IMG/VR virus record: IMGVR_UViG_2645728091_000017
Coordinates: 1-23,397 of that record
Origin: a virus
Lineage: Duplodnaviria; Heunggongvirae; Uroviricota; Caudoviricetes
DNA length: 23,397 nt
Strand: one strand, 5' to 3'
Positions 1 through 8,882 of the stretch are shown one piece after another. The position numbers and the translations under genes were made by a program. Numbering within the stretch: position 1 is the first letter of the stretch; each line of letters opens with the position of its first letter. The notes beneath the pieces are model-generated. The model had not been told where the DNA came from. It saw only the letters and a list, made by a program, of their open reading frames with translations, and did not search any database.

Positions 1-717
1 ATGCTGATTGTATCTGTTCTCAAATGCGGTAAAGAATTTACCCCCAAACACGCACAATGGCTGCATAGCCAATTTAAAGGCATACCTTCAATTTGCTTAA
101 CTGATGCTGGAAGTATCCCTGGTGTTGAAACCGCACCGTTAATGCATAACCTTCCAGGTTGGTGGTCTAAGATTGAGCTTTTTAATCCAAACCATCCGGT
201 AATAGGTGATAAGGATCTGCTTTATTTTGACGTTGATGTTGTCATAACTGGTGATATCAAAATCTTTGATGCGGCGAAAGAGTTCACTATGCTGCGTGAG
301 TTTAACCACCCTTCCAGGGTTAACTCATCCATTATGTTCATTCCTGCGTCTATCAAACAATATGTTTGGGATGCGTTCTGGACTGACCCCGAAAAAAATA
401 TGCATGAATGCCAAACAGAAGATAAATGGGGTGATCAGGGATTTCTGGGCAGCGTCATGAAACCTGTATTGTGGCAAGATATAATTCCCGGCTCTGTTGT
501 TAGTTACAAATGCCATATAGCCACACGCAAAATGATAGGTTACAACCCTGACTTGGCATCAGATTATGCTACTGGCAAAGTTCCTGATGATGTTTCAGTT
601 GTATGTTTTCACGGTAGTCCTCGCCCATGGCGAACAGGGTTCAGTTGGGTTCCTTCCTTTTCTGTACGCGATACCCTGTATGGTAAATTCAAAAATTTTA
701 AACTCAGTTTGAAGTAA
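1..717 (+). CDS. Hypothetical protein, AT-rich moron; possible DxD-motif glycosyltransferase-like enzyme (speculative). May be 5'-truncated by the window edge
   Basis: 238-codon ORF on the strand opposite the late operon, visibly lower GC than the structural genes, followed by a strong intrinsic terminator. Contains LLYFDVDVVITGD (D-x-D-like). No family recognised with confidence. Confidence 0.35.
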   Translation: MLIVSVLKCGKEFTPKHAQWLHSQFKGIPSICLTDAGSIPGVETAPLMHNLPGWWSKIELFNPNHPVIGDKDLLYFDVDVVITGDIKIFDAAKEFTMLREFNHPSRVNSSIMFIPASIKQYVWDAFWTDPEKNMHECQTEDKWGDQGFLGSVMKPVLWQDIIPGSVVSYKCHIATRKMIGYNPDLASDYATGKVPDDVSVVCFHGSPRPWRTGFSWVPSFSVRDTLYGKFKNFKLSLK

Positions 718-789: not shown

Positions 790-1193
790 ACAGAATACCC
801 CCCTTACTAACGATCCACAAACACCGCCTAAAATTTAATTTTTCTTTTATTTTCTGTGAGTTGTAATTTTACGCCGATCCCTCACAGATCCTTTTTACTG
901 AAAAAAAATGAAATTTCTTTCAATCATTTCAGTTTCTGTTCTCCGCAAAGCCGCCAGTAATGGTGCGGTCTGGCGCTCTGGTTTGTAGAAAAATAAAACT
1001 GAAAAAATTTCCAGATCCAGAAACCGCAGGCGGGTGCGGTGTAGTGCCGTTTTTGTCTGCGAAAGATTTATTTTGTCTGCATGTGGCTACCTCAGAGCGT
1101 CGCTGTGAATTTGATCTTATTGCGGTGTCGCAGTGGTTTCCCTAGTGTTGTCCCGCCTGCTGAGAGCGTTCTGTGCGGTCTGGTGGTGGGTAC

Positions 1194-1215
1194 AAAAAAA
1201 CCCGCACAATGCGGG
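1194..1215 (-). terminator. Rho-independent terminator for the minus-strand operon end
   Basis: On the minus strand, hairpin CCCGC-ATTGT-GCGGG followed by a T7 run (plus strand shows AAAAAAA then CCCGCACAATGCGGG), about 40 nt past the stop at 1258. Confidence 0.55.
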
Positions 1216-1257
1216 TTAAGGTGTGTTCAATTCATATCAACCGATATAAGAACGTAG

Positions 1258-1590
1258 TTACTGACAGGCTTTTTGTCCAATGTAGTATGCAATTGAGCGG
1301 TCAACTATAGGGGCCATATTTGGATCTGGTGCCGAGTTATTCATCTGCTCGATGGTCTCACCGTCTCCAAGATATTTAACTGTCCCGGCAGTACAGTCGT
1401 ACAGCCGCTTTGAATATGATGTTCCAGAAGGCCCCTTTCTTTCGGTTGTTATAGTAGCCATGCTGCCGTCGCGAGTCTTATCTAAAATCGTGTAACTAGC
1501 CTTCGTATCTGTTGGCACATAAACAACCTCAGCCGCAAACACATTGAATGAAACTGCTGCTCCTACAGCTAATATAATGAAATTTTTCAT
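1258..1590 (-). CDS. Small secreted or periplasmic protein of unknown function (moron at the distal end of the tail operon)
   Basis: Internal Met gives MKNFIILAVGAAVSFNVFAA-EVV, a typical Sec signal peptide, preceded by an AGGA/AGGG Shine-Dalgarno-like stretch. Mature part about 90 aa with two Cys. AT-richer than neighbouring genes. The ORF track's longer N-terminus (to 1650) lacks signal-peptide logic. Confidence 0.45.
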   Translation of the reverse strand: MKNFIILAVGAAVSFNVFAAEVVYVPTDTKASYTILDKTRDGSMATITTERKGPSGTSYSKRLYDCTAGTVKYLGDGETIEQMNNSAPDPNMAPIVDRSIAYYIGQKACQ

Positions 1591-1680
1591 ATCCCTATTC
1601 CTATCATTTGAGTATGCAATAATCCTATCAAGGAACTGAGAAAACGACAAACCTCGCGTTTTGTGGGCTGTCTGGAATGG

Positions 1681-3384
1681 TCAGGCAATGATGTTCTGGT
1701 ACTTGCTCCGGGTCTGTCCGGCCTTTGTCGCCGTCTGGGTAAATGCTCCGGCATTGGTTGGCGTACCAACACTGGGGTGCGAATGGCTTGCGCACTGCTG
1801 CGCCAGTTCTGCCAGTAAATCAATGGTGTCCAACATCATGGTCAGCGTGTTTATACTCTCACTGCCGATATGGACGGTTGGCCCCATAATCTGCTGACCG
1901 CCCGATGCCACCGATTTGCGTAATGCAGCAATCTTTTCAGTCAGGGTTCCCCCCACATCAACATCTACGGCTCCCGCCACATTAGTGGACTGTTTCCCGA
2001 TTATCTCAGTTTCATCATTCCCTTCAATACTGGCCAGCCTGTTACCTTTCACCGCCTGGCTATAGTCACCAGCACTTACCTGCTGGATGGCTCCGGCCAG
2101 CAGTGTGGCGGTTCCCAGTACCGTGGTTTTATCCGTGGCTTTCACCGTGGTTTCACGGCTGACCAGTTCGCGCTGTTCCGTATCGGCTTTTACGGTTCGC
2201 GCCATCGATGTTTCACTGATGGTCTGATCGGTCTGCCTTACCCAGTCACCCGCCTGAGTCACCCTCTGAGATACTTCTTCCCGCTGCTGCTGTAATTGCT
2301 CACCGGGTTTAACGTCCGGCAGGCTGGTACCATCCGGCAGCGTCTGCCTGATAAAGGGTTTATCCGGTCTGCCCCCCGTGAATGCAACCTCAACCAGCGT
2401 CCCTTCTGGCGGAAACTGAAACATACCCGAATCATTCCCGGCCATCGGTACCGGCAACGGCACCGCTGAATAAACAGGCGTCTGATTGTCCGGGTTTCCG
2501 TCTGCGTCAAGCAGCTGCACGTCCACGGCGTAACGTGGCCGGAAGGGATCGGCAAAGTTACCGCTTTTTACCGGCTCTGAATGCGCCACGACTCTGGTCA
2601 TCTTTGGCAAATGAAGCCCGGATGCCAGTTCCGGGTAATGGCTTTCAATCTGCCGTTGCGCCGGTGTTTTCTGCAAAGGTTTACCCGTTGCGCGGTTTCT
2701 CGGCGTCCATGTGATCGCCATCGTGTCATTCGTCAGGTGAACTTTAGTCACGCGTTCACCGTTCATCTCCACCCCTGGCCGCATAGTCTGGATCACTGGT
2801 AATGTCACAGAGTTACCGCCAGCAGCCCCCTGGCTGAACTCTGACGGGATTTCTACAGGACGACCGGCAAACAATGACTTTTCTGCGCCGCCGACGTAAA
2901 GCGAACCATCAGGCAACTGGTACCAGATGTAATCCTGGATACTGAACGCCCTGCCCAGATTGTTCAGCAACTGATAACCAGTACCGTTATGGGTAAAATG
3001 TGGGATGGGGGTATCGCTGTACTGTGCATCAGGCACACTGACTGTGATCCCGCTGTTTTCTTCCAGCCAGCCCGCAATTTCACGCAAAGTCGGGTGTTGA
3101 AACGAACATGGCCACATCCTCTCAAACACACCTGCCAGCTCACGAATGAACAGACGCTGAAAACCGTTTTCAGCGGGCTGCGATCGCTCCACATACCCCG
3201 TAAACCAGCGCAAAAGCAGATCGGTATACCCCACATCCAGCCGCACCAGTTTTCCGGTGTAATCGGTTGTTGTCTCTGCGGTGATGAAGCCCCGGCCGCA
3301 GCTGTTCAGCTCCAGTACCAGGCTGGCATCCACCAGGTGAACTTCATCCGTTGAAAGATAAAGGCGTTTTACTGGTTTCATCAT
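1681..3384 (-). CDS. Late-operon protein, 567 aa, function unassigned (position suggests a tail or baseplate component, possibly gpD-like hub)
   Basis: Long ORF with high GC; its start overlaps the stop of the upstream gene at 3384. No diagnostic motif recognised; assignment is positional only. Confidence 0.5.
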   Translation of the reverse strand: MMKPVKRLYLSTDEVHLVDASLVLELNSCGRGFITAETTTDYTGKLVRLDVGYTDLLLRWFTGYVERSQPAENGFQRLFIRELAGVFERMWPCSFQHPTLREIAGWLEENSGITVSVPDAQYSDTPIPHFTHNGTGYQLLNNLGRAFSIQDYIWYQLPDGSLYVGGAEKSLFAGRPVEIPSEFSQGAAGGNSVTLPVIQTMRPGVEMNGERVTKVHLTNDTMAITWTPRNRATGKPLQKTPAQRQIESHYPELASGLHLPKMTRVVAHSEPVKSGNFADPFRPRYAVDVQLLDADGNPDNQTPVYSAVPLPVPMAGNDSGMFQFPPEGTLVEVAFTGGRPDKPFIRQTLPDGTSLPDVKPGEQLQQQREEVSQRVTQAGDWVRQTDQTISETSMARTVKADTEQRELVSRETTVKATDKTTVLGTATLLAGAIQQVSAGDYSQAVKGNRLASIEGNDETEIIGKQSTNVAGAVDVDVGGTLTEKIAALRKSVASGGQQIMGPTVHIGSESINTLTMMLDTIDLLAELAQQCASHSHPSVGTPTNAGAFTQTATKAGQTRSKYQNIIA

Positions 3385-3929
3385 TAACCCAAAGCATCAT
3401 TGACGGGCTTCAGCACTTTGCGTTCAAACCACGTCAGTTTTTCTTCATCTTCTCCGGCAGACTGGCCACCGTTCTGTCCCGCACTACCGGCAGTCTGTTT
3501 TTTTGCGGTCGTCTTACCTGTTGCCCTGGCCTCTCGCTTTTCCTGCACGCTGATATGTTCCGCCAGTGTGAATGTCACCAGCCAGGACATTTTCCCGTCC
3601 TGCTGGGGTGCATCCAGCATTCCGCTGAACGTTGCTTCACGAAAGTTAACAGCACGGGCAACTTCATGCGCCACACGGTACTTCTGACGATTACCACTGG
3701 CATCGGTCGCACTGGCCAGCTCAAAAATACGCTTCAGAATTTCAGGCTGTTTAAAAGGTATTTCACCGCTGATCCGCAGTTCCTTTCCCTTTGCTCCCTG
3801 CTCTGATTTTGTTGTGGCGCTGGTCTGGCCGGACTGATCTTTATCCTGAAATTGCTGTGAAACAGTCACCCGCATGTTTTTCAGCTGGATGGCCTCGCCA
3901 TTAAGCGCCAGTGTCGGGATCGAAGTCAT
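3384..3929 (-). CDS. Late-operon protein, 181 aa, function unassigned (possible tail protein)
   Basis: ORF translationally coupled to both neighbours; charged and Gln/Ala-rich C-terminus. Family not recognised. Confidence 0.45.
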   Translation of the reverse strand: MTSIPTLALNGEAIQLKNMRVTVSQQFQDKDQSGQTSATTKSEQGAKGKELRISGEIPFKQPEILKRIFELASATDASGNRQKYRVAHEVARAVNFREATFSGMLDAPQQDGKMSWLVTFTLAEHISVQEKREARATGKTTAKKQTAGSAGQNGGQSAGEDEEKLTWFERKVLKPVNDALG

Positions 3930-4662
3930 GAATCATTCCCTTTATTCCATCAAGATTATCGCCAACCAGCATCATGGCAGCGGTGTAAACGGCAGACTGC
4001 TGCGGAATGTCCTTCATCAGTTCCAGTAACGTGGTGCCGGTATCTCCGCTGGCAGTAAAAACCCACGCTCTGGCACTCTTTCCCTGTAAATCATTCAGGC
4101 CGCTGGCCACATCTCTGATAAGCTGGTCACGCAGCTGCGTGAACTCGCCCAGCTGTTTTTTCAGCCCTTCGATATCAAACCCGGCACACGCCGCCTTTTG
4201 TGCCTGGCTGATTGCCATAGCAGATAAAGCTGCCCTGCTGGTTGGTACAGACAGTGGAATGGACGCAGGTAACGCTGCGGCGGCTTTCGCCGGGATCTGC
4301 ATCTTTTCAATAGCCAGCGCTGCGAAGGATTGCGCCAGCCGTTTTACCTGCGTGAATGCCGGGGCGGGGAAAATCCCGACCAGGTTATTCAAGCTGGCCA
4401 TAAAGTTTTCCTGCGTCTGTCCGGTGACCATCATAATCACCACGTCCGCATTCCCCCCCGTTCCGGCCAAGCGTTCAGCAAGATAGCGAACGGCATTAAC
4501 CGGGCTGAGATATGCCCCGTTCGCAGTCTGCTGTCCCAGCCCATAAATCCACGGATGCGCAGGGACGATCGAACAGTTCAGCGCAGCAACAGAATCCGTG
4601 AAGGCCAGACGTGCTTCACGCCACATTTCCAGGCACCTCCGGCCACACAATTTCCGGTGCAT
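3901..4662 (-). CDS. Late-operon protein, about 240-253 aa, function unassigned
   Basis: ORF immediately downstream of the tail fiber assembly gene in the same operon. True start may be the internal Met of MWREARLAF. Family not recognised. Confidence 0.45.
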   Translation of the reverse strand: MHRKLCGRRCLEMWREARLAFTDSVAALNCSIVPAHPWIYGLGQQTANGAYLSPVNAVRYLAERLAGTGGNADVVIMMVTGQTQENFMASLNNLVGIFPAPAFTQVKRLAQSFAALAIEKMQIPAKAAAALPASIPLSVPTSRAALSAMAISQAQKAACAGFDIEGLKKQLGEFTQLRDQLIRDVASGLNDLQGKSARAWVFTASGDTGTTLLELMKDIPQQSAVYTAAMMLVGDNLDGIKGMIHDFDPDTGA

Positions 4663-5207
4663 CTTCCGGTTGAATACGGTTCAGTAAAACGCGGTATTTT
4701 TTCCATGCGGTAAGCAGCAGTGCTTCTTCTTCGGTCGCCATGTCTAAATCAACGGCATCCTGCAATGTGGCAATGGCGTCACTGGCCTGTTTAAGCAGTC
4801 TTTTCTTTTCGGCATCTGCCTCGCTGACTAATGCAATTCGCATGGCCTCCGCATCATCCACCCACCCACGCCTTACCATTCCATTTTTGCCAGGCATTAG
4901 CCGGTGCTAACGTGGTTGTCCCTTCCGGGTACCCCCCTGGCTCGATGATCACCACTTCATTACCGTTTTCTGTATCAAACACCACCTCACCACGATGATC
5001 CTCACGGGAAATCCATCTTTGCTTCTCTGAATCAAAAATTGCCACAAACCCCGCTTTGATTACCGGTGGTTTTATTGTGGTGCAGTTGACTGGCAGTCCG
5101 GTATGCGCAGGTATAAAAGCATCACCCGAACCAATAAATTCATTCGTGTCTGAACGCAGGTTATAAACAGTAACTGTTTGATCGGTTTCACTCATTTTAA
5201 AAGTCAT
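4616..5207 (-). pseudogene. Tail fiber assembly protein (Tfa/gpG-like) split by a frameshift
   Basis: N-terminal part (4854..5207, MTFKMSETD...QKWNGKAWV) and C-terminal part (4616..4897, ...DDAEAMRIALVSEADAEKKRLL...) lie in different frames and together resemble one Tfa. The junction is in the repeat TGGGTGGGTGG (minus strand, about 4857..4868). Confidence 0.6.
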
Positions 5208-6781
5208 TATGCGAGTCTCACTATGTAGTTAAATGCAATATTCTTAACTGTCGTTTCTGTGTTACCCGACGCGGCGACGCTAATCGTGTGACTATGTGCG
5301 CCAATTGCTACGGTATGAGAGTGAGCGCCAATACCTACGGTGTGATTGTGTGCGCCAATAGCTACGGTGTGCGCATGGTTTCCCGCCGAACTTGTAGTAG
5401 TCGCGCCCTTATCCTGTCTGGGTACACCATAATCCGAACCGCCAGACTGCACACTAACGGCAAACCCGACAGTGTGCGTATGCGCCCCCGTTGTATTTGT
5501 CGTTTTCGTGCCATAGTCAAATGTGCTCGCCGTTTTAGTACCGTAATCAAATGAGGATGTTGATTTCGTCCCCAAATCGGTACTGGATGCACTGGCTGTG
5601 TGTGAGTGGGATTTATTACCATCATCTTCATAGGACAAAACTTCGCGGCCGTCTGGTTTCCCTTTGATTGTCCAGCGGCGCATGTCAGGAATAACACCCG
5701 ACGGATACGCGATGGCCAGTAAAGGATATGCAACCTTATCAAAAGATTGTCCCTGCATAATTGCCCACCCTACAGGCGGGATATTCGTTGGCCACGGAAG
5801 CGGCACACCAACCGGCAGAACATCACTACGACTTAAAACCGCCAGTTCACCCAGTTCCAGACTTTTTCTGGCTTTCGCTTTGTCGTTAACATCAGCAAGG
5901 TTTGCATCCTTACGCAAAAAATCGCTGCTGGCCTGCTGTTCTCCCAGGCTACCTTTTGGCCGTAGATCCGTGATGTTGCCATCCACATCAATGCTGGCCA
6001 CCGCAAACACATAATGCTGAACCCCGTTCTGAACGTAATCAGCAAGATTTGCAGCCACCGTGATTTTGCTCTGCACATTCCAGACACTGGTCAGCGTCCC
6101 TGTCCAGCACACATCCAGCCAGACTTTTACCGGCTTTGTCGTCACCGTAATATTCTGATTCGCAGCCAGTGACGCACGAAGTCCAGCCACATAACCCGTG
6201 CCTTTCGTGACAAAAAACTGATTGCCGGTTTTGGCTACCAGATACCCGTTACCAAAAAACGCAGCCGCACCATAGATATCCATATTTTCAAGGCGCTGGC
6301 GCTCATCCATTCCGGCCATACGCGCGGTGAAATCAATCTGCCAGGTCTCAGCGGGCGTATTAATCCCGGTTTCCGTTTGTGCGCCGTTGTACTCCATCAG
6401 AAACGAGCGGGTCAGCACGTTCCCCTGTTGCCCTTCTTTTGTTTTCAGTTTCTGCTGTGATGGTGCATGGACAATCATTGCCAGCGTACCGCTGGCCTTA
6501 TTGAGCAGACCGATCCAGTTAAAACTGAAATCACCCACATCTGCGCCCAGCACTACGGAATAAACCACCCCGTTTTCATTCACCACACCTGTGCGGGTAA
6601 CAGACTGCCGGTGAACAATCTGTGCTGTCGGGGGCAACGCTTCATTGCGATCAACAGGTGTATCCGGGTTTAAATCCGGCACACTGGCAAAAACAAATTC
6701 GTCCAGTAGTACCGGTTCACCCGTTGCGCCCTGCTGTGCTTTCCAGTTTTCAAACGCCAGTGTGATGGCTGTCTGTGACAT
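5207..6781 (-). CDS. Tail fiber protein (P2 gpH-like N-terminus; C-terminal tip with His-x-His repeats)
   Basis: 524 aa. Position between the baseplate genes and Tfa, with a 1-nt stop/start overlap (TAATG) with Tfa. C-terminus carries DYGTKT(A/T)S(T/S)F repeats and GAHxHTV(A/G)I repeats. Confidence 0.8.
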
Positions 6782-6791
6782 AAAAACCTCC

Positions 6792-7385
6792 TTACAAACT
6801 CGCGCTGAATATTGCGCTGCGGGCTTCCGTCCCTGCTAACGTCGCCGGGTAAACCATATATTCCCCCTGATCCCATCCAGCCCTGATAACCAGGCTTTCA
6901 GACGTGATCACCTCAAACTGATAACGGCGGCATGTTCGCCCGTACTGGCGGATTATCTGGATCAGCAGCTGCGTGTTGTCTGCAATCTGGCTGTCTGTAA
7001 CCCGAACAAGAATTACATCCCAGTCGATATCCGGTTGCCGTTCTAACAGCTCCACATAACCAATCCCCAGCCGTTCAAAGATATTGATAAACCCCTCTAC
7101 TGAACCGGCATCCCGCGCATTCACAAAGGCAAAAGCCACGCGTTTGCGGAACAGAGGCAACGGTTCACCATCAAAACGGGTTATATCCCGGTCATAAGCC
7201 AGCAGGTTCAGTAATGCCGGTGTACACGTCAGCGGATCAAACTGATTCGTTGGCCAGGTAACCCAGCCGTAAACCTCAGCCCAGAACCGCCGCGCCGTTT
7301 TCAGCAATTTCCCCGGTTCGCCTTTATTCATCCAGGAAGGCAAGACCATCCCGGCCAGCTTTTTCATGAACTCATTCATTCTCAA
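6792..7385 (-). CDS. Baseplate protein, P2 gpI-like tail protein I
   Basis: About 195 aa, located between the baseplate J-like gene and the tail fiber gene as in P2 (J-I-H order). Confidence 0.55.
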
Positions 7386-8558
7386 TATTCACCGTCAGTG
7401 ATTTCAGACGCGGCACGCTAAGTTCACTGGTAATGTCTCCCAGCGAAAATGTCAGTGATTCTGTCTGCGCAAAGGTTTTATGAATTTCCCGCCCCAGTTG
7501 CGAAAAGGAAAACCGTGAATATGGCCACGTCTTTCTGACGTCATAATCAGCATTTTCACGAAAGGCACAGCGGATCATGTTCTCAATGCCGCCCTTCAGC
7601 GTTTTCACCTCTTCGTCACTGAAGTTGTTTAGATTTTTGACATAAACAGTGACGGCCAGATCGTGAAGCGTTTCCGGCATGGGATAACACTGCATATCAT
7701 CACCGTGCCCGTGATGTCCCAGCGTGTTGATATAGTCATTCACCGCATCCACGAACGGCGCTGATGCCACCCCACTGTCCAGTAATAAAAAGGCGTTGGC
7801 TGTTCCTGGCCCCCTCGGTGCTTCATGCTCAAAGAAAATCCGATCTATACTCAGCCCGGCAACACTGGCGATCATTGAGCGATAGACCGCATCAGTGTGG
7901 TAATTCCCCACAAGATTAAACTGATTGCGGCAACGCTCGCGCAGTTCATCATCACTTTCCTCGTCAGCCCCCGGTACGGTCAGCCAGTTTTCCTCACTGA
8001 CCACATGGCTGATACCACTGACCGCCACCGGCAGAATGCGGTAATATCCAGGCGCAAGGTTATACGCGCCCCCGGTGCCGGTGGCTTTCACCGGCAGTAA
8101 TGCGCTGGCCGCACCGGAAGCGATCACCACATCCTCAGTGGTGGCCACCTCATAAACTCGCCCGTTAATGCGTTCTGTCTGGATAACCGTCCCGGCTTTC
8201 ACCGTCACCACAGCTTTTGCATCTTCTTTGAAGAAGCGGATCACCCCATGTGCAGCGCTCGCCGGTTTTGCCGTGACGTTCACCGCCCAGGCCAGCAGAC
8301 GCAACATGCTCCCGCTGGCTGTGGCCACAAACATATTGGCCAGCACGGTTAACACCAGAACGTCTTTAAGCCACATCACCGGGGCAGTCACAATGGCGGT
8401 GATTAATCGCCAGAACGGTGACATTCGGGATGTATTGGTGATAATTCCCTCATCTGCTGCAATTGCATTGAAGCGTTCCCGCACTTCGGCTTCCGTTACC
8501 GGCATACCGCTGTCTTTCACCACTTCTTCAAAATCAACCTGCGGTTTTTCCGTCATAA
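7372..8558 (-). CDS. Baseplate J-like protein (P2 gpJ / Mu gp47 family)
   Basis: About 395 aa with family-like composition, upstream of the gpI-like gene. Start is probably MTEKPQVDFEE, directly abutting the upstream stop; the ORF track extends it to 8610. Confidence 0.7.
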
Positions 8559-8882
8559 ATCCACCTGCGCAGAGATCCCGCCAAAATCGTATGTACTCGC
8601 GGTTACCCACAGCCGCTTCTGACTTTCTTCACTGATTTCCACCGTACCCGGCACAATGCGTTCATCATCTTCAATCAGTAATTCCATGCGGGTAAAAATA
8701 TCCGCTCTCATTGTCGGGCTACGTTCGGCGATTAATTCCGTCGCTAACCCGCTTTCAATAATGGAATGAATAATGTCCTGCCCGATACTTTTTCGGTTAT
8801 TACATAATTCAGGTTCATTACCGGTATTCAGAACAAAGTCACCGCCCTGAATCAGCAAGTCGATATAGAGAACATTACTCAT
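8553..8882 (-). CDS. Small baseplate protein (gpW/gp25-like or DUF2590-like)
   Basis: About 110 aa between the tape measure and baseplate J genes. Start MSNVLY overlaps the tape measure stop (ATGA) with GGAG 9 nt upstream. Confidence 0.5.
   Translation of the reverse strand: MSNVLYIDLLIQGGDFVLNTGNEPELCNNRKSIGQDIIHSIIESGLATELIAERSPTMRADIFTRMELLIEDDERIVPGTVEISEESQKRLWVTASTYDFGGISAQVDL

Follow-up and report, generated by a model that had tools for sequence, protein, structure and literature searches.

A small moron gene behind the tail operon of an ESSI-2-like phage: a probable periplasmic protein with a predicted Protein E/PseM-type fold

The subject of this study is a small gene at the distal end of the tail operon in the IMG/VR virus record IMGVR_UViG_2645728091_000017 (Caudoviricetes), of which we analysed positions 1 to 23,397; this whole stretch of 23,397 nucleotides (nt) is called the window below. 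A preliminary description, made from the letters alone, had placed an AT-richer open reading frame (ORF) behind the last late gene, encoding a precursor of roughly 110 amino acids (aa) with a clear signal peptide and two cysteines and ending at a strong terminator, and all of these points are borne out here (Table 1). The ORF lies on the minus strand, which the preliminary description had left unstated, and begins 90 nt downstream of the spike gene, which is the last gene of the tail operon; its guanine-cytosine (GC) content is 43.8%, whereas the spike gene has 54.7% and the late region (1681-15000) 52.6%. The tail operon itself matches that of ESSI-2-like Peduoviridae, including the Escherichia phages ESSI2_ev015, ev129, ev239 and ev040; in E. 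coli chromosomes, ESSI-2-like prophages adjoin mntR/ybiR. As listed by the ORF-finding program, the frame spans 1258..1650 with a TTG start and 130 aa, while an in-frame ATG at 1590 gives a product of exactly 110 aa, beginning MKNFIILAVGAAVSFNVFAAEVVYVPTDTKASY and ending IGQKACQ. We rejected the 130-aa version, since all homologs (49 of 49 in our alignment A1) start at this ATG, as does the RefSeq entry for the identical E. coli protein, WP_000787654.1. The precursor has two cysteines only, C66 and C109; both are invariant in the 49-sequence alignment, and in a larger set of 141 sequences (A4) C66 is again invariant while C109 is present in at least 90%. The predicted mature protein has 91 aa, a mass of 9.9 kDa and a pI of 5.2.

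Table 1. Features at and around the small gene, with positions counted from the first letter of the window.
Feature	Position	Strand	Remarks
238-aa glycosyltransferase-like moron, first gene of the window	1-717	plus	phrog_1962, E 6e-81; convergent with the small gene
Stretch between the two morons	~800-1190		~400 bp
ORF of 61 aa within this stretch	960-1145	plus
Terminator T2, downstream of the small gene	1190..1217	minus	AACCCGCATTGTGCGGGTT then U-run; 8 pairs, 5 GC; folding test
Coding sequence of the precursor, 110 aa	1258..1590	minus	stop codon 1260..1258; ORF reading, phrog_13843, homologs, RefSeq start
Signal peptide coding part, residues 1-19 (MKNFIILAVGAAVSFNVFA)	1534..1590	minus	predicted cleavage between VFA and AE; n/h/c heuristic
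GATAGGA motif, two copies 23 nt apart upstream of the ATG	1597-1628	minus
Shine-Dalgarno-like AGGA	1599..1602	minus	8 nt before the ATG; kept in diverged cassettes
Second promoter candidate, TTGATA-17-AATGAT	1603..1631	minus	from the scan; would cut off the ribosome-binding site
Best promoter candidate, TTGTCG (1650..1645), 17-nt spacer, TAGGAT (1627..1622)	1622..1650	minus	consensus level only
Terminator T1, between spike gene and small gene	1640..1668	minus	apparently decayed in the window by two substitutions
Spike gene, last tail gene, 567 aa	1681..3384	minus	phrog_2258, E 4e-279; Gp5_C repeats, Phage_base_V OB domain

Two terminator hairpins bound the gene, and no other gene lies between them. 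The downstream hairpin T2 (1217..1199, followed by U7) begins 40 nt after the stop codon and folds with -13.2 kcal/mol (z score -3.5), a value that none of 200 shuffled sequences reached; it is this structure that answers to the strong terminator of the preliminary description. The hairpin on the spike side, T1, is intact in E. coli 1919D3, where it folds with -17.0 kcal/mol (z score -3.8), and in cassettes of the Salmonella/Citrobacter type, while in the window (compared with L002 6825-6877 and L020) it reaches only -6.4 kcal/mol (z score 0.05). The number of substitutions in T1 rises from none in 1919D3 to one in E. coli AHB29 and two in the window, a series that looks like stepwise decay and that should raise read-through from the late operon; because T1 is decayed in the window, such transcripts may reach the small gene there.

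The comparison with close relatives argues strongly for an optional insertion at this place. In phage ESSI2_ev015 and in E. coli EH09-18-41, the alignment shows a terminator directly after the spike gene and no small ORF; the window and E. coli 1919D3 have an insert of about 450 bp at the end of the spike gene, and in E. coli MFDS1016424 the same slot holds an unrelated 84-aa cytoplasmic cargo. Of 5426 complete E. coli genomes, 13 have the small gene, always in the spike slot, whereas 476 have a related spike region. The single hairpin of the phages that lack the ORF looks like a hybrid of the left part of T2 and the right part of T1, which suggests that the cassette may be gained and lost by recombination at the terminators. 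Window positions 1190-1668 on the minus strand are thus a self-contained cassette with a single gene between two similar terminator hairpins. The view that the gene is a moron at the end of the tail operon has in this way been strengthened by its exact absence from close relatives, the flanking hairpins, the lower GC content and the copies in unrelated phages, and we regard a moron cassette with an exported product as very probable. As a type of element, a moron with a secreted product at the end of an operon is ordinary.

Over its full length (residues 1-110 of 110, E 1.9e-47), the product matches phrog_13843, a family to which PHROG assigns an unknown function and no fold. The ORF is not absent or degraded in all relatives, a point raised in the preliminary description: 80 close homologs with lengths near 110 aa occur in Escherichia, Salmonella, Citrobacter, Klebsiella, Yokenella, Pseudomonas and Thiobacillus as well as in metagenomes, and the ratio of nonsynonymous to synonymous substitution rates (dN/dS) is 0.15-0.19 relative to homologs of 80-84% amino-acid identity. 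A chance ORF can be ruled out by this homology together with the dN/dS values, and the 91-aa mature domain is under purifying selection. Across Enterobacteriaceae, Pseudomonas and Thiobacillus (the 49-sequence alignment), 21 positions are invariant, including both cysteines and a block that reads T-x-R-x-G-x-S-G-T-S-Y-S-x-R-x-Y-x-C...V-K-Y-L-G, and the E. coli prophage copy keeps about 50% identity to copies from Thiobacillus or metagenomes. Close family members are also found in Methylophilus, Shewanella, plant-associated Pseudomonas and environmental metagenomes. An exhaustive profile search returned 636 cluster representatives at 50% identity, and the exact protein occurs on at least 1000 enterobacterial contigs, always as a 'hypothetical protein'. 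The protein has no significant match in Pfam, NCBIfam or PADLOC (none of the PADLOC families reaching E <= 1), no RNA gene was detected in the window with Rfam and tRNA scans, and the literature yielded no match for phrog_13843, for TdeM, for the accessions, or for Adhesin_E in connection with phages.

The precursor has the features expected of a substrate of the Sec system and signal peptidase I, as judged from an n/h/c heuristic, from the confidence profile of the structure model and from comparison within the family. Residues 1-19 comprise a basic n-region (K2), a hydrophobic core of 12 residues (mean hydropathy 2.9) and V-F-A at positions -3 to -1, and this architecture with its AxA-type site is kept in all 49 homologs although the sequence there diverges freely. 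The predicted local distance difference test (pLDDT) score of the AlphaFold model lies at 56-57 over residues 1-20 and rises to 95-98 with residue 21 and beyond. The clear signal peptide seen in the preliminary description is thus supported in the protein itself, in its 49 relatives and by the low pLDDT of residues 1-20. One of the 49 family members carries a lipobox instead; the window protein, whose signal peptide neither contains nor adjoins a cysteine, has no lipobox, and because it combines this with a signal-peptidase-I site we predict it to be soluble in the periplasm and not exposed on the surface. Two invariant cysteines in a domain of 91 residues would fit an oxidising compartment.

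In longer family members, the signal peptide is replaced by an N-terminal zinc ribbon with membrane segments, or by DUF4124, and the conserved domain is placed C-terminally, where it is presumably extracytoplasmic as well. Such forms are common: many relatives are 180-340 aa long and carry the domain at their C-terminal end or close to it (P0101, P0113, P0134, P0151, P0127 and P0097), their N-terminal partners being a zinc ribbon with membrane segments, DUF4124 or SH3_3, and two have an extra C-terminal domain. The fusion to SH3_3 is seen in one long member; SH3_3 domains are often wall-binding.

An AlphaFold2 model built from the 49-sequence alignment has a mean pLDDT of 89.9, about 97 over the mature part, and a predicted template modelling (TM) score of 0.76. 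It consists of strands at residues 21-23, 32-41, 44-53, 56-65 and 70-77, followed by helices at 80-85 and 100-108; C66 comes directly after the strand 56-65, and C109 ends the helix 100-108. With high confidence, then, the mature protein is modelled as a curved antiparallel β-sheet with a C-terminal helix, and with equally high confidence the two cysteines are placed in the model so as to hold the helix against the sheet.

Three independent structure libraries point to the same resemblance. In the Foldseek search of the PDB, the leading matches are Protein E chains, with probabilities of up to 0.98, and PseM, with a probability of 0.80, at E-values of only 0.1-0.4; in BFVD the best match is a podovirus protein annotated as 'Surface-adhesin protein E' (E 9.5e-3, probability 1.00, TM score 0.59). 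Likewise, the commonest Pfam match below threshold among the relatives is Adhesin_E, found for 3 of the 49 relatives (best E 0.02) and for 27 of the 141 (best E 0.0019). Based on the model, we consider it quite probable that the protein represents a minimal core of the Protein E/PseM-type fold.

Protein E of Haemophilus influenzae (PF16747, Adhesin_E; PDB 3ZH5/6GUS), known as an adhesin and vaccine antigen, has an antiparallel β-sheet and a disulfide-tethered C-terminal helix, an arrangement that the model of the window protein matches. Its invariant cysteines C99 and C148, whose disulfide is said to tether the C-terminal helix to the sheet, are at places equivalent to C66 and C109, and the two families share the motif P-T-D-x-[KR]-x-x-Y in the N-terminal strand. 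There are also clear differences: Protein E is a lipoprotein anchored via its invariant C16, whereas the window protein lacks a lipobox; the mature form of Protein E has about 144 residues rather than 91; and Protein E is a core gene product of Pasteurellaceae, whereas the present family is borne by phages and islands across environmental proteobacteria.

The other leading match, PseM (TdeM, PA0989; PDB 9M3L) of Pseudomonas aeruginosa, is reported to be a periplasmic endolytic muramidase that depends on a type VI secretion system and acts on peptidoglycan (PMC12494544). Both proteins have a Sec signal peptide and a periplasmic location, which in the case of the window protein are predicted, and the disulfide of PseM between Cys87, after β5, and Cys134, at the end of α3, is mirrored by the placement of C66 and C109. 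The two sequences share 8% identity. The window protein ends one residue after C109, the counterpart of Cys134, whereas PseM runs on to residue 186 (91 versus 159 mature residues); the window protein is thereby without β8 and α5/α6, which in PseM form the dimer and the substrate crevice proposed by docking. The substrate-binding residues of PseM are Tyr36, Arg90, Glu120 and Arg128.

Several results speak against this structural assignment. The window protein itself has no Adhesin_E match in Pfam (PF16747), the matches of its relatives lie below the gathering threshold, and PDB searches by sequence, one with the single sequence and two with profiles, found neither Protein E nor PseM. When 5.8 billion proteins were searched with a profile of 141 diverse family members, no annotated relative that would bridge the families came up, and none of the 144 profile matches carries PF16747. 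When the family was compared with an alignment of Pasteurellaceae Protein E sequences by hhalign, the probability was 26.6% over 23 residues only, with a Protein E alignment that was shallow (effective number of sequences ~2.3) because the word-indexed search returned only close Protein E relatives; the aligned part is the motif of the first strand, VPTDxKAxYxxL versus PPTDxRxGYxRL. We consider homology with Protein E and PseM likely, but not proven, and by the Pfam standard the protein does not belong to PF16747.

The only match from the PDB sequence searches was to 6xi1, labelled 'Flagellin hook IN motif family', in which four repeats of Y-N/D-x5-V-x-Y-L-G-x-G-x-T align with residues 63-82 at a summed E of 4.6e-8. 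We treated it as spurious, as the stretches are individually insignificant, and the match is probably coincidental because 6xi1 is absent from the fold searches.

Since Protein E and PseM are both best matches to one query model, and have equivalent disulfides, these two proteins probably share a fold with each other as well. The 2025 paper on PseM states that no structural homolog exists and calls the fold 'unique' (PMC12494544); the shared fold is thus a point that its authors did not note.

Outside the spike slot, the family is found in very diverse surroundings. A relative is encoded on 113 viral contigs of IMG/VR, and our analysis of the viral contexts covers 79 loci. About 50 of these are in siphophages of a Klebsiella type, where the gene precedes the tape-measure gene by 43 nt and closes a variable moron region that follows a DUF6246 gene; this slot just before the tape-measure gene is that of HK97 gene 15. 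About 18 loci are in the ESSI-2-like spike slot, and in four loci of lambda-like siphophages the gene is flanked by a lambda-H-like tape-measure gene on one side and a gpM-like gene on the other. Further copies are located between ddrB/DUF4145 and the portal gene in the P1-like phage D6, in that accessory region of a P2-like prophage which is bounded by the portal/AntA genes and ogr, and 72 nt after the S24 repressor gene of a lambdoid prophage in P. putida, with both genes on one strand. The gene is also carried by a small integrase/resolvase element, by a Pseudomonas mobile region with KilA-N and CsrA genes, and at a variable chromosomal junction of P. capsici. In a defence island (L021 2296-12544), a 340-aa form with zinc ribbon, transmembrane segments and SH3_3 comes right after McrB/McrC and before two caspase-like (Peptidase_C14) genes, and in Shewanella (L025 5098-6342) the gene follows a CAP12/PycTIR-type TIR gene by 22 nt.

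The neighbours differ everywhere, and neither the 79 viral loci nor the other contexts hold a conserved partner gene. A two-gene or toxin-immunity system was rejected on this account, and because the neighbours share no conserved family we take the gene to stand alone. It belongs to a large, unannotated family whose members move singly between unrelated temperate phages, integrative elements and defence islands.

Upstream of the gene, the best promoter candidate, TTGTCG-17-TAGGAT, follows directly after T1, and both its hexamers and their spacing are kept in cassettes of ~80% identity (L033/L043) despite a 14-nt duplication downstream of it; it would give a leader of 25 nt that holds the AGGA before the ATG. 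Each of the two hexamers agrees with the consensus at only 4 of 6 positions, and the scan, which gave 2 sites where 1.9 would be expected from shuffled sequence, is not significant alone.

The duplication just mentioned is a tandem one, TTAGGATTGTTGC/GATAGGATTATTGC, seen in the Salmonella/Citrobacter-type cassettes (L033/L043 ~3940-3990) at the same place as the doubled GATAGGA motif of the window. Either repeat could be a binding site for a regulator.

Beyond T2, the first gene of the window encodes a glycosyltransferase-like protein that has no Pfam or NCBIfam match, and its slot is taken in related prophages by a serine O-acetyltransferase, an AAA ATPase or a 411-aa hypothetical protein. 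This variable cargo points to the prophage end as a cargo hot spot, which may include genes for surface-polysaccharide modification. The stretch between the two morons is kept in relatives with and without the small ORF and has no Rfam or tRNA match; homologs of the 61-aa ORF within it (cluster c15, up to 105 aa) recur in 8 IMG/VR loci, where they lie downstream of the gene and convergent with it. The stretch may contain a small gene, have a regulatory role or represent att-related sequence. Cargo also varies in the siphophage moron region before the tape-measure gene, where many alternative genes occupy the slots (L045-L106); among them are one for a 209-aa lipoprotein and one for a lipoprotein-like protein of 155 aa with a hydrophobic N-terminus (L065 3417-3884; phrog_3135), which weakly matches Cor superinfection exclusion (E 2.7e-4).

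The preliminary description had named exclusion, lysogenic conversion and inhibitor functions as typical of genes at operon ends; the fold points instead towards the group of Protein E and PseM. For the function of the protein, we suggest the following. The gene would be transcribed in the lysogen from its own weak candidate promoter just downstream of T1, and read-through from the late operon may add to this in the window, T1 being decayed. The protein would be exported, be oxidised in the periplasm and remain soluble there, and it would bind a conserved component of the envelope, with peptidoglycan and conserved periplasmic or outer-membrane proteins as the most plausible candidates. In this way it may protect the lysogen at the level of the envelope, by superinfection exclusion or by resistance to attack on the cell wall, rather than serve in phage morphogenesis. 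The high conservation, together with hosts that range from enteric to environmental beta- and gamma-proteobacteria, argues for a target that is common to Gram-negative envelopes and not for a vertebrate ligand or a fast-evolving phage protein. That the action would be on the side of the lysogen we infer from the loci next to a repressor gene, in the P2-like accessory region and in defence surroundings, from envelope-type morons in tail regions, from the reported activity on peptidoglycan of PseM, the one periplasmic fold relative whose function has been studied, from the lack of a conserved partner gene and from the fusion to SH3_3.

Envelope-acting morons are a well-known group, which includes the inner-membrane protein gp15 of HK97, Sp (Spackle) of T4, the lipoproteins Cor and Bor, and the outer-membrane barrel Lom of lambda. 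The present gene is analogous to these in that it is optional and stands singly in the tail region, has a terminator of its own and differs in base composition, and in that its product would likewise go to the envelope of the lysogen. We detected no similarity to HK97 gp15, T4 Sp, Cor, Bor or Lom in sequence or fold, and there are two clear contrasts: the window protein is predicted to be soluble in the periplasm, unlike gp15, Cor, Bor and Lom, and it is far more conserved across hosts than any of these morons.

Taken as a whole, the explanation proposed here, including envelope protection of the lysogen, is in our estimate slightly less probable than an even chance, and an envelope-protective role in the lysogen, judged by itself, is a tentative proposal that is more easily doubted than accepted. 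Known exclusion proteins usually evolve fast, which goes against it; the unusual conservation of the family fits a host target, but it would fit an enzyme as well. The protein matched no PADLOC defence model, and its association with a defence island and with moron slots is guilt by association.

Kinship with PseM would also allow a small PseM-like peptidoglycan hydrolase, which might help lysis, take part in competition or remodel the wall. PseM, however, is toxic in the periplasm of E. coli and requires the immunity protein PA0990, and its catalytic residues are themselves not firmly defined, as only a quadruple mutant lost activity (PMC12494544). There is no sign that the window protein is a toxin. 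No PA0990-like immunity gene or Nudix gene lies near its ORF or is conserved among the family loci, nor is any other partner adjacent, and the gene is carried stably on the many contigs counted above. Given also that the chain stops at the helix cysteine, without the elements that make up the dimer and crevice of PseM, we find a hydrolase improbable. An inhibitor of lysozymes or wall-degrading enzymes in the manner of Ivy/PliC or T4 Spackle would accord with a small, soluble, presumably disulfide-bonded periplasmic protein whose gene lies beside those of the tail tip (spike, tape measure), the products of which cross the wall, and a conserved enzyme as target would fit the high conservation; but no similarity in sequence or fold to Ivy, MliC/PliC, PliG, PliI or exclusion proteins was found, and this possibility, too, has only a small probability in our view.

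The resemblance to Protein E raises the question of a lysogenic-conversion factor that binds matrix or complement proteins of an animal host and thereby aids colonisation or serum resistance. Protein E reportedly binds vitronectin, laminin and plasminogen, and the predicted fold, the weak Adhesin_E matches among the relatives and the occurrence of clinical and animal isolates among the E. coli carriers would all suit a factor of this kind. However, a protein without lipobox that is predicted to be soluble in the periplasm would not be exposed on the surface, and for the close relatives in Thiobacillus, Methylophilus, Shewanella, plant-associated Pseudomonas and metagenomes a vertebrate matrix is irrelevant; binding of vitronectin, laminin or plasminogen is thus unlikely for the window protein, and we believe that a conversion factor of the Protein E type is highly unlikely. 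A component of the virion, or of tail assembly, is what the position of the gene in the tail modules of three unrelated phage types might at first suggest, namely before the tape-measure gene in ~50 loci, between the tape-measure and gpM-like genes in four, and after the spike gene here. It can be given very little credence, as the gene is absent from very close relatives with the same tail genes, encodes a predicted Sec signal peptide, is in most alleles set off from the operon by a terminator, and has further copies after a prophage repressor, on islands that are not of phage type and at junctions in chromosomes.

If we return to envelope protection of the lysogen, a broader proposal would be that the minimal Protein E/PseM-fold domain defines a new mobile single-gene class of envelope protection, for superinfection exclusion or envelope defence. 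Such a class might bind peptidoglycan or a periplasmic component and so block the passage of the tail tip or tape measure, or the action of wall-degrading effectors; we regard it as unlikely, though less so than the alternatives just discussed.

What is new for the family is its size together with the complete lack of annotation, its distribution across phage types, with a recurring place beside tail-tip genes, and its placement beside Protein E and PseM; for phrog_13843, the link to this fold and the survey of contexts are added by the present analysis. If the relationship is true, an adhesin, Protein E, and a toxin, PseM, would be joined in one superfamily with a phage-borne branch. Morons are a main route by which prophages change the phenotype of their hosts, and most of them have no assigned function. 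Should the protein block phage entry or attack on the wall, it would be relevant to host range in phage therapy, for lysogens of E. coli, Klebsiella and Salmonella; should it not, it would be an ordinary accessory gene. In either case, the structural placement gives the family its first testable frame, that of a periplasmic, disulfide-stabilised envelope binder.

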